IMG/VR virus record: IMGVR_UViG_2667527666_000008
DNA length: 33,255 bases
Reading direction: 5' to 3' (one strand)
From: a virus
Lineage: Duplodnaviria; Heunggongvirae; Uroviricota; Caudoviricetes
The translations under genes were made by a program, and so were the position numbers. This document shows, one piece after another, positions 19,796 through 20,045 of this stretch. The notes below the pieces were generated by a model that saw only the letters and a list, made by a program, of their open reading frames with translations, did not search any database and was not told the DNA's origin. The stretch's first letter is position 1, and each line of letters begins with the position of its first letter.

Positions 19796-19871
19796 GGCCC
19801 TTTAGCTCAGTGGTGAGAGCGAGCGACTCATAATCGCCAGGTCGCTGGTTCAAATCCAGCAAGGGCCACCA
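19796..19871 (+). tRNA. tRNA with CAU anticodon (Met or Ile2/lysidine type)
   Basis: Cloverleaf folded by hand: acceptor GGCCCTT/AAGGGCC, D-arm AGCTCAGTGGTGAGAGC, anticodon loop CTCATAA, T-loop GGTTCAAATCC, 3' ACCA. Confidence 0.9.
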
Positions 19872-19878
19872 TCACATA

Positions 19879-19955
19879 CCGCCATTAGCTCATCAGGAAA
19901 GAGCGCCAGCCTTCGAAGCTGGTTGCGCGGAGTTCGGGTCCCCGAAGGCGGTCCA
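19879..19955 (+). tRNA. tRNA-Arg-like (UCG anticodon), degenerate
   Basis: Cloverleaf with anticodon loop CTTCGAA, but one mismatch in the acceptor stem, one in the T-stem and an atypical T-loop TTCGGGT; possibly a pseudo-tRNA. Confidence 0.5.
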
Positions 19956-19968
19956 TTATCTGTATCCT

Positions 19969-20045
19969 GCGTTGTTAGCTCAGCCGGACAGAGCAATTGC
20001 CTTCTAAGCAATCGGTCACTGGTTCGAATCCAGTACAACGCGCCA
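19969..20045 (+). tRNA. tRNA-Arg (UCU anticodon)
   Basis: Acceptor GCGTTGT/ACAACGC, anticodon loop CTTCTAA, T-loop GGTTCGAATCC, 3' GCCA. Confidence 0.9.

Follow-up and report, generated by a model that had tools for sequence, protein, structure and literature searches.

The window analysed here is a 33,255-bp stretch of viral DNA (IMG/VR record IMGVR_UViG_2667527666_000008), and the element in question is a cluster of three tRNA genes, ileZ, argN and argO. ARAGORN called three tRNA genes and no more in the window, each on the + strand: ileZ, of the tRNA-Ile2 type with anticodon CAU (19796..19871), argN, tRNA-Arg-like with anticodon UCG (19879..19955), and argO, a tRNA-Arg with anticodon UCU (19969..20045), separated by spacers of 7 nt (ileZ-argN) and 13 nt (argN-argO). 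The Rfam tRNA model (RF00005; gathering score 29) matched the three genes with 72.5, 43.4 and 70.1 bits, respectively, and at E-values of 3e-14, 3e-6 and 2e-13 no tRNA of the trio is therefore a chance match. The original prediction, read from the letters of the sequence, had placed a triplet with anticodons CAU, UCG-like and UCU at this locus; ARAGORN reproduced both coordinates and anticodons, and the first and third genes were accepted with anticodons unchanged and with the 72.5 and 70.1 bits in Rfam. Alignment with the tRNA cluster of phage 933W, a comparison that the prediction had proposed, showed 76/76 identical bases for ileZ, 70/77 for argN and 76/77 for argO. We put a rough probability of 0.85 on the reading that the trio is the ileZ-argN-argO cassette of lambdoid 933W-type phages, carried in a prophage of Escherichia coli that lacks the Shiga toxin (stx) genes, and that its argN is a weakened allele.

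Judged from its sequence, the CAU gene is a tRNA-Ile2 gene (ileX-like) and not a tRNA-Met gene. It is identical to ileX of E. coli K-12 at 68/76 bases, including the whole anticodon stem-loop, and contains the acceptor pairs C4-G69 and C5-G68, which are reportedly determinants for the lysidine synthetase TilS; RefSeq labels it tRNA-Ile. The stems of ileX and ileZ have diverged, partly through compensatory changes. The same is true of argO and the E. coli tRNA-Arg(UCU) gene argU, which have the anticodon loop, the D arm and the T loop in common. To our knowledge K-12 has no tRNA-Arg with a UCG anticodon, hence no counterpart of argN. Across the loci sampled ileZ is nearly invariant (nucleotide diversity, pi, 0.005), and one mismatch within it, A27·C43 (19822/19838), is fixed in essentially all sampled copies; the chromosomal ileX has G27·U43 at this pair, for which A27·C43 is an isosteric wobble replacement. 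A literature search on ileZ, argN and argO found nothing relevant, and the facts on 933W are taken from its GenBank record and from secondary papers.

Structure and variation of argN

The mismatches which the original prediction had seen in the acceptor and T stems of the middle tRNA were confirmed by reading argN as a cloverleaf. Acceptor pair 6-67 is A·A (19884/19946), leaving the stem short of its full seven pairs, and T-stem pair 52-62 is A·C (19931/19941), leaving that stem short of five. Position 58 of the T loop, where A is near-universal among tRNAs, is G (19937), and the T54-A58 interaction is absent. Pair 6-67 is intact (A-U) in 27/34 variants of the family. The gene also has an unusual C1-G72 pair and U73 as discriminator (19952); as U73 occurs in all 34 variants of the alignment, including the 933W-type alleles, it is a trait of the scaffold and not peculiar to the window copy. 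The identity determinants of E. coli arginyl-tRNA synthetase are A20, C35, U/G36 and A/G73, and argN has A20, C35 and G36 (D loop AUCAGGAAA, anticodon UCG) but no purine at position 73.

In Rfam, argN reaches 43.4 bits against 55.9-58.4 bits for intact alleles, 12-15 bits below them, while its two neighbours stand 27-29 bits above it; as a cloverleaf it was calculated at -20 kcal/mol, 8-11 kcal/mol less stable than the -28 to -31 kcal/mol of intact alleles. Thermodynamic folding was tried as a way of telling a pseudogene from a working gene and dropped as non-discriminating: the predicted fold lacks the canonical T stem for the window argN and for the 933W allele alike, and the minimum-energy folds of ileZ and argO are likewise not cloverleaves.

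Related loci were collected with an IMG/VR scan anchored in ileZ, which picked up loci whatever the condition of the middle gene and returned 120 of them; a scan of genome contigs with the 16-mer CCGCCAYTAGCTCATC gave 3 real loci among 120, the rest being chance matches in unrelated phyla. CAU-UCG-UCU was the architecture of 56 loci, 22 had CAU and UCU at the same spacing with nothing called between them, and others had a Lys(UUU) gene in the middle slot. Among 46 unique haplotypes with all three genes called, pi was 0.005 for ileZ, 0.069 for argN and 0.014 for argO, with 0.29-0.34 in the flanks; across related prophages argN evolves 5-12 times faster than its neighbours. Cloverleaf integrity was scored in the 80 loci having both ileZ and argO as a frame. 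ileZ was canonical in 77/80 loci and argO perfectly paired in 73/80, whereas argN was perfect in 39, had two mismatches in 11 (the class of the window allele) and three in 4, was wrecked in 20 (8 or more unpaired positions, in most cases through replacement of the anticodon arm) and was deleted in 4. The Rfam scores of the middle gene form a corresponding series of decay, from 58.4 bits (locus L013) and 55.9 bits (Stx2a phage 1447) through the 43.4 bits of the window to 26.4 bits, below the gathering score (L005), and no match (L015, L017 and L025).

The three substitutions of the window allele, A52, G58 and A67, are minority, derived states, present in 12, 16 and 12 of the 46 haplotypes, respectively, and no compensating change for any of them was found among the haplotypes aligned, whereas relatives show one compensatory double substitution apiece in ileZ and in argO, the one in argO lying in the T stem. 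The evident precursor of the window argN is the allele of L041, which has perfect stems and, of the three substitutions, only G58. In three IMG/VR loci (L026, L060 and L113) the slot holds a chimera with argN as its 5′ half and argO as its 3′ half, fused at the CCTTC that their anticodon loops have in common; it apparently came from recombination between the two Arg genes with deletion of the intervening sequence, and its acceptor halves no longer pair. By toxin status, argN was intact in 7/7 stx-positive loci and not intact in 30/54 stx-negative loci. The window allele was matched at ≥99% identity in at least 230 complete E. coli genome records and at 95-99% in 616 more, but in none of the 284 deposited phage records holding the slot, where the best identity was 92.8%.

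Because the slot is wrecked or deleted in 24/80 relatives, argN is considered dispensable, and on this comparative record it is the only evolutionarily dispensable member of the trio. The window copy is probably impaired or non-functional, although several findings weigh against this. Much of the gene is intact, namely the D arm (G18, G19, A20), the anticodon arm with its 7-nt loop (U33, UCG, A37) and the encoded CCA; it passes both ARAGORN and the Rfam gathering score, and RefSeq records it as tRNA-Arg without a pseudogene flag. Folding cannot settle its status because the 933W allele also misfolds as a cloverleaf, and the conserved A27·C43 of ileZ implies that a single A·C mismatch need not disable a tRNA. 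The loci sampled lack phylogenetic independence, and frequencies such as 24/80 are descriptive only. Finally, many genomes carry the allele, and no fewer than two distinct prophage contexts contain it, which could mean that it is tolerated or even useful.

The last point leads to the possibility that argN is a working tRNA-Arg(UCG) whose mismatches and G58 are tolerated, with the allele persisting for the decoding of CGA and CGG. This is a serious alternative but the less probable one. Detection by ARAGORN, Rfam (43.4 bits against the gathering score of 29) and RefSeq would be expected of a functional gene, as would the intact anticodon arm with A20, C35 and G36 in place, the presence of the allele in at least 230 complete genomes with different prophage backgrounds, and the 2.4-fold (CGA) and 3.3-fold (CGG) enrichment of the codons in the prophage; ileZ, which is called functional, has a fixed A·C mismatch of its own. 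However, both mismatches and G58 are derived and uncompensated, further stem-breaking changes have arisen within the allele class (G10U in L062, G51A in L067), the slot has been wrecked or deleted in those 24 of 80 relatives, and the allele is absent from the 284 phage records. The suggestion of the original prediction that the middle gene may be a pseudo-tRNA is supported, in that the comparative data fit relaxed constraint, although argN is full length, neither truncated nor disrupted, and is still detected by ARAGORN and Rfam. Most likely, argN would be impaired or heading towards a pseudogene, carried along by two functional neighbours.

The scaffold of argN (a CCGCCAY... acceptor stem with C1-G72, and the same D and T arms) recurs with other anticodons. 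A Lys UUU arm stands on it in ileZ-Lys-Thr-Gly clusters (L008, L049, L053, L056, L058, L073, L112 and L123 in IMG/VR, and L213), and a UCU anticodon in an stx2-positive locus (L035) and in Serratia proteamaculans (L146); the E. coli copies have U73 as discriminator, the Serratia copy A73. The stems of the scaffold show compensatory changes at pairs 7-66, 27-43 and 30-40 in standard numbering (alignment columns 7-67, 28-44 and 31-41). With several anticodons on one scaffold and compensatory stems, the slot might, as a less likely reading, be under diversifying rather than relaxed selection.

Such remodelling would suit a further explanation, in which the middle element is a selected tRNA-like RNA whose substitutions jointly build a hairpin; it might act, for example, as a processing element, or as a decoy or escape variant directed against a host or competitor nuclease that attacks tRNAs. 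The predicted hairpin UUCGG/CCGAA (19933-19937 with 19942-19946) gains one Watson-Crick pair from G58 and another from A67, and A52 removes a competing T-stem pair; the 5-bp hairpin has a predicted probability of 0.81, compared with 0.00 in the precursor allele, and the occurrence of the scaffold with UUU, UCU and UCG anticodons and compensatory stem changes points to active remodelling of the slot. We nevertheless regard this explanation as very improbable. The hairpin was noticed after the fact, ViennaRNA misfolds the 933W allele too, the many independent destructive events in the slot (arm replacement, deletions, the chimera) fit neutral decay better, and the window contains no linked nuclease or partner gene.

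The quantitative picture, with argN alone decaying and the damaged allele present in prophages of genomes but not in phage genomes, was not found stated in the literature searched. The state of argN could serve as a marker of prophage decay, and annotated prophage tRNA-Arg(UCG) genes should not all be counted as functional.

Cassette borders and the empty stx site

A putative sigma-70 promoter, pT, was read upstream of the cassette (19758..19786, +), with the -35 element TTGCAG (19758-19763), a 17-nt spacer and the -10 element TATTAT (19781-19786), ending 9 nt before ileZ. A consensus promoter scanner missed it because the -35 element matches at 3/6 positions only. The homologous site is annotated in the 933W record as 'pT; putative tRNA promoter', and TTGnnn-17-TATTAT is retained before ileZ in at least four unrelated upstream contexts, which supports a self-contained unit of promoter, tRNAs and terminator; promoter activity of pT may be expected from these features. 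The cassette is closed by an intrinsic terminator, found by terminator scan (20060..20085, +; GGCTCGC-TTTT-GCGGGCT followed by a T run), which is conserved in 933W and Stx2a_1447 and described in the 933W record as 'possible rho-independent terminator upstream of the stx genes'. Matches to the Rfam family 'Plastid-ycf2' antisense to the tRNAs fell below the family threshold and were set aside.

In Stx phages the toxin genes follow this terminator. Searches of the window gave only noise for Stx2A and Stx2B (tblastn, E ≥ 3) and no match for the stx2 cassette (blastn), in keeping with the claim of the original prediction that no toxin genes follow the tRNAs. Positions 19459-20083 are 92% identical to Stx2a phage 1447 (locus L001, 3759-4385), from the 3′ end of a methylase gene through the argO terminator. 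By blastn this homology stops at 20083 (L001 4385) and restarts at 20088 (L001 5721), at an STnc100 small RNA (sRNA) unit followed by the esterase gene, and the intervening 1335 bp of L001 are stx2A and stx2B. stx2AB is therefore absent as a clean 1.3 kb empty site at the junction of argO terminator and STnc100 (~20084..20090, no strand assigned), and the prophage is not a Shiga toxin-converting phage, since stxA and stxB were sought downstream of the tRNA cassette and are absent. The same synteny, together with the identical order in 933W, bears out the proposed position of the triplet at the tRNA locus of Stx phages. The absence of stx likewise holds as predicted, but it is no oddity: of the 61 cassettes sampled for which 1.4 kb or more of downstream flank was available, 54 lack stx, and absence of the toxin genes from this locus is the rule. 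A base-level empty site for the stx2AB cassette is of modest use.

The gene for the antiterminator Q (16969-17658, +; Pfam Phage_antiter_Q, 282 bits) lies upstream, with a pR′-like promoter (17642-17670, +; promoter scan) and a tR′-like terminator (17705-17728, +; terminator scan) whose functions are presumed. This region (16969..17728) is ~2.1 kb upstream of the tRNAs, a spacing which agrees with the annotation of pR′ and its terminator in 933W. Between it and the cassette are genes for a eukaryote-like Ser/Thr protein kinase (17805-18569, +) and a PP2C phosphatase (18566-19309, +), which overlap, followed by the 3′ remnant of an N6/N4 DNA methyltransferase gene (19459..19746, +; 95 codons), which covers only positions 135-219 of 221 of Pfam N6_N4_Mtase, is 92% identical to the 3′ end of the methylase gene of Stx2a_1447 and is recorded in RefSeq as a pseudogene without its N-terminus. 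The kinase and phosphatase genes, both rich in ATA and AGA, stand in place of the 5′ two-thirds of the methyltransferase gene that precedes the cassette in Stx2a phages. On the other side, the gap between the tRNA terminator and the esterase gene is occupied by tandem units of the STnc100 family (RF02076) at 20121-20311 (+; 136.3 bits), 20350-20523 (+; weak and sub-threshold at 30.1 bits) and 20589-20798 (+; 165.4 bits), where Stx2a_1447 has one copy right after stx2B (L001 5754-5969). According to a 2026 preprint, STnc100 is related to the PasD sRNAs. The gene for a SASA-family carbohydrate esterase (NanS-p-like) is found at 21021..22874 (+; Pfam DUF1737, SASA and DUF6645); it is homologous to the esterase genes of L001 and 933W, which in Stx phages come after stx, and has holin and lysozyme genes downstream. 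The cassette thus has Q and pR′ on its upstream side and the genes for the esterase and for lysis on its downstream side.

tRNA genes are common sites of prophage integration, and the three tRNAs could accordingly be host genes or remnants of an attachment site and not phage cargo. A 2026 preprint interprets tRNA matches close to the sRNAs of prophages as signs of integration hot spots; according to its authors, no such matches were detected in phage genomes (10.64898/2026.05.13.724894). Here, however, the cassette is internal: Q and the lysis genes flank it, and the integrase end beside ompW is ~18 kb away. It occupies the same internal position in 297 deposited phage genomes, and all three genes are full length with a terminator and a (putative) promoter of their own. 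The internal position and the presence in packaged phage genomes led us to reject integration-site remnants, which we regard as hardly credible. In contrast to the tRNA matches of that preprint, ileZ-argN-argO is internal late-region cargo, found in about 290 deposited phage records.

The prophage of E. coli ML35 (L003) was considered as a colinear counterpart of the whole window, but colinearity fails outside 10863-23580: the window has an insertion at 9560-10862 and, right of 23580, a different lysis and head module. The 1.3 kb insertion, within sequence otherwise 99.97% identical to ML35, contains an IS3-family frameshift pseudoknot (10418-10534, -; Rfam ALIL, 120 bits) and is presumably an insertion sequence (IS) element. 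Elsewhere in the window are a full-length gene for QueH, an epoxyqueuosine reductase of the queuosine pathway of tRNA modification (11931-12596, +; Pfam 222 bits), located in the nin region, a hok/sok-type antitoxin RNA beside hokD (12664-12839, +; Rfam sok, 120 bits) and a DicF sRNA (4546-4597, -; 77 bits).

Proposed function and relation to known phages

Since the window is not colinear with the ML35 prophage throughout, codon usage was computed on its own open reading frames (36 reading frames, 8,490 codons) and compared with 39 K-12 core genes. Per 1000 codons, ATA was used 10.6 times in the window and 2.9 times in the core genes, AGA 8.1 and 0.8 times, AGG 5.9 and 0.55 times, CGA 7.0 and 2.95 times, and CGG 11.4 and 3.4 times; all five are little used by the core genes of the host, and the prophage has them 2-11 times more often. 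The adjacent kinase gene has 8 ATA and 6 AGA in 253 codons, and stx2AB, absent here, has 37 ATA and 15 AGA per 1000 codons. The most likely function of the cassette would be to supply tRNAs for codons which are poorly decoded by the host and overused by the phage. ileZ, presumably lysidinylated by the host TilS, would read AUA, argO (UCU) would read AGA and AGG, and argN (UCG), to the extent that it is active, would read CGA and CGG. Transcription could start from pT, possibly in the lysogen too, and during induction Q-antiterminated read-through from pR′ would place the cassette inside the late transcript.

The cassette, and its occurrence in stx-negative lambdoid prophages, is already known and annotated in identical RefSeq sequences. 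Over 20 complete E. coli genomes (ML35, VR50, BEN2908, 55989 and others) are 100% identical to positions 19000-21000 of the window, and RefSeq labels the genes there tRNA-Ile, tRNA-Arg and tRNA-Arg; in the stx-negative lambdoid prophages of these strains the cassette itself is without difference from that of the window. In a non-stx prophage of O157:H7 OK1 the cassette is near-identical, with this argN allele matched at 99%. By itself the cassette matters little, having long been annotated in 933W-type phages and in hundreds of identical RefSeq genomes.

tRNA genes downstream of Q are a general feature of lambdoid phages (PMC3636060; PMC4631060). Phages SfI, Sf6, ST64T and 21 carry such genes at the same moron position and with the same proposed role, the supply of tRNAs for codons overused by the phage (PMC3636060), but theirs are Asn and Thr species and not sequence homologues of the window cassette. 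The closest likeness is to 933W, VT2-Sakai, Stx2a_1447 and their relatives, which have the gene order, strand, spacing and anticodons of the window cassette. 933W (NC_000924), in which the order is pT, ileZ, argN, argO, terminator, stxA2, stxB2 and SASA esterase, shares with the window the pT motif and the terminator in addition to the near-identical ileZ and argO, and in both the cassette follows Q and precedes the genes for the SASA esterase and for lysis. The window differs from the 933W-type phages in having no stxAB, the argO terminator abutting an STnc100 unit instead, in having a truncated methylase upstream, preceded by the pair of Ser/Thr kinase and PP2C phosphatase, and in its argN, where A52, G58 and A67 break two stem pairs and the T54-A58 interaction.

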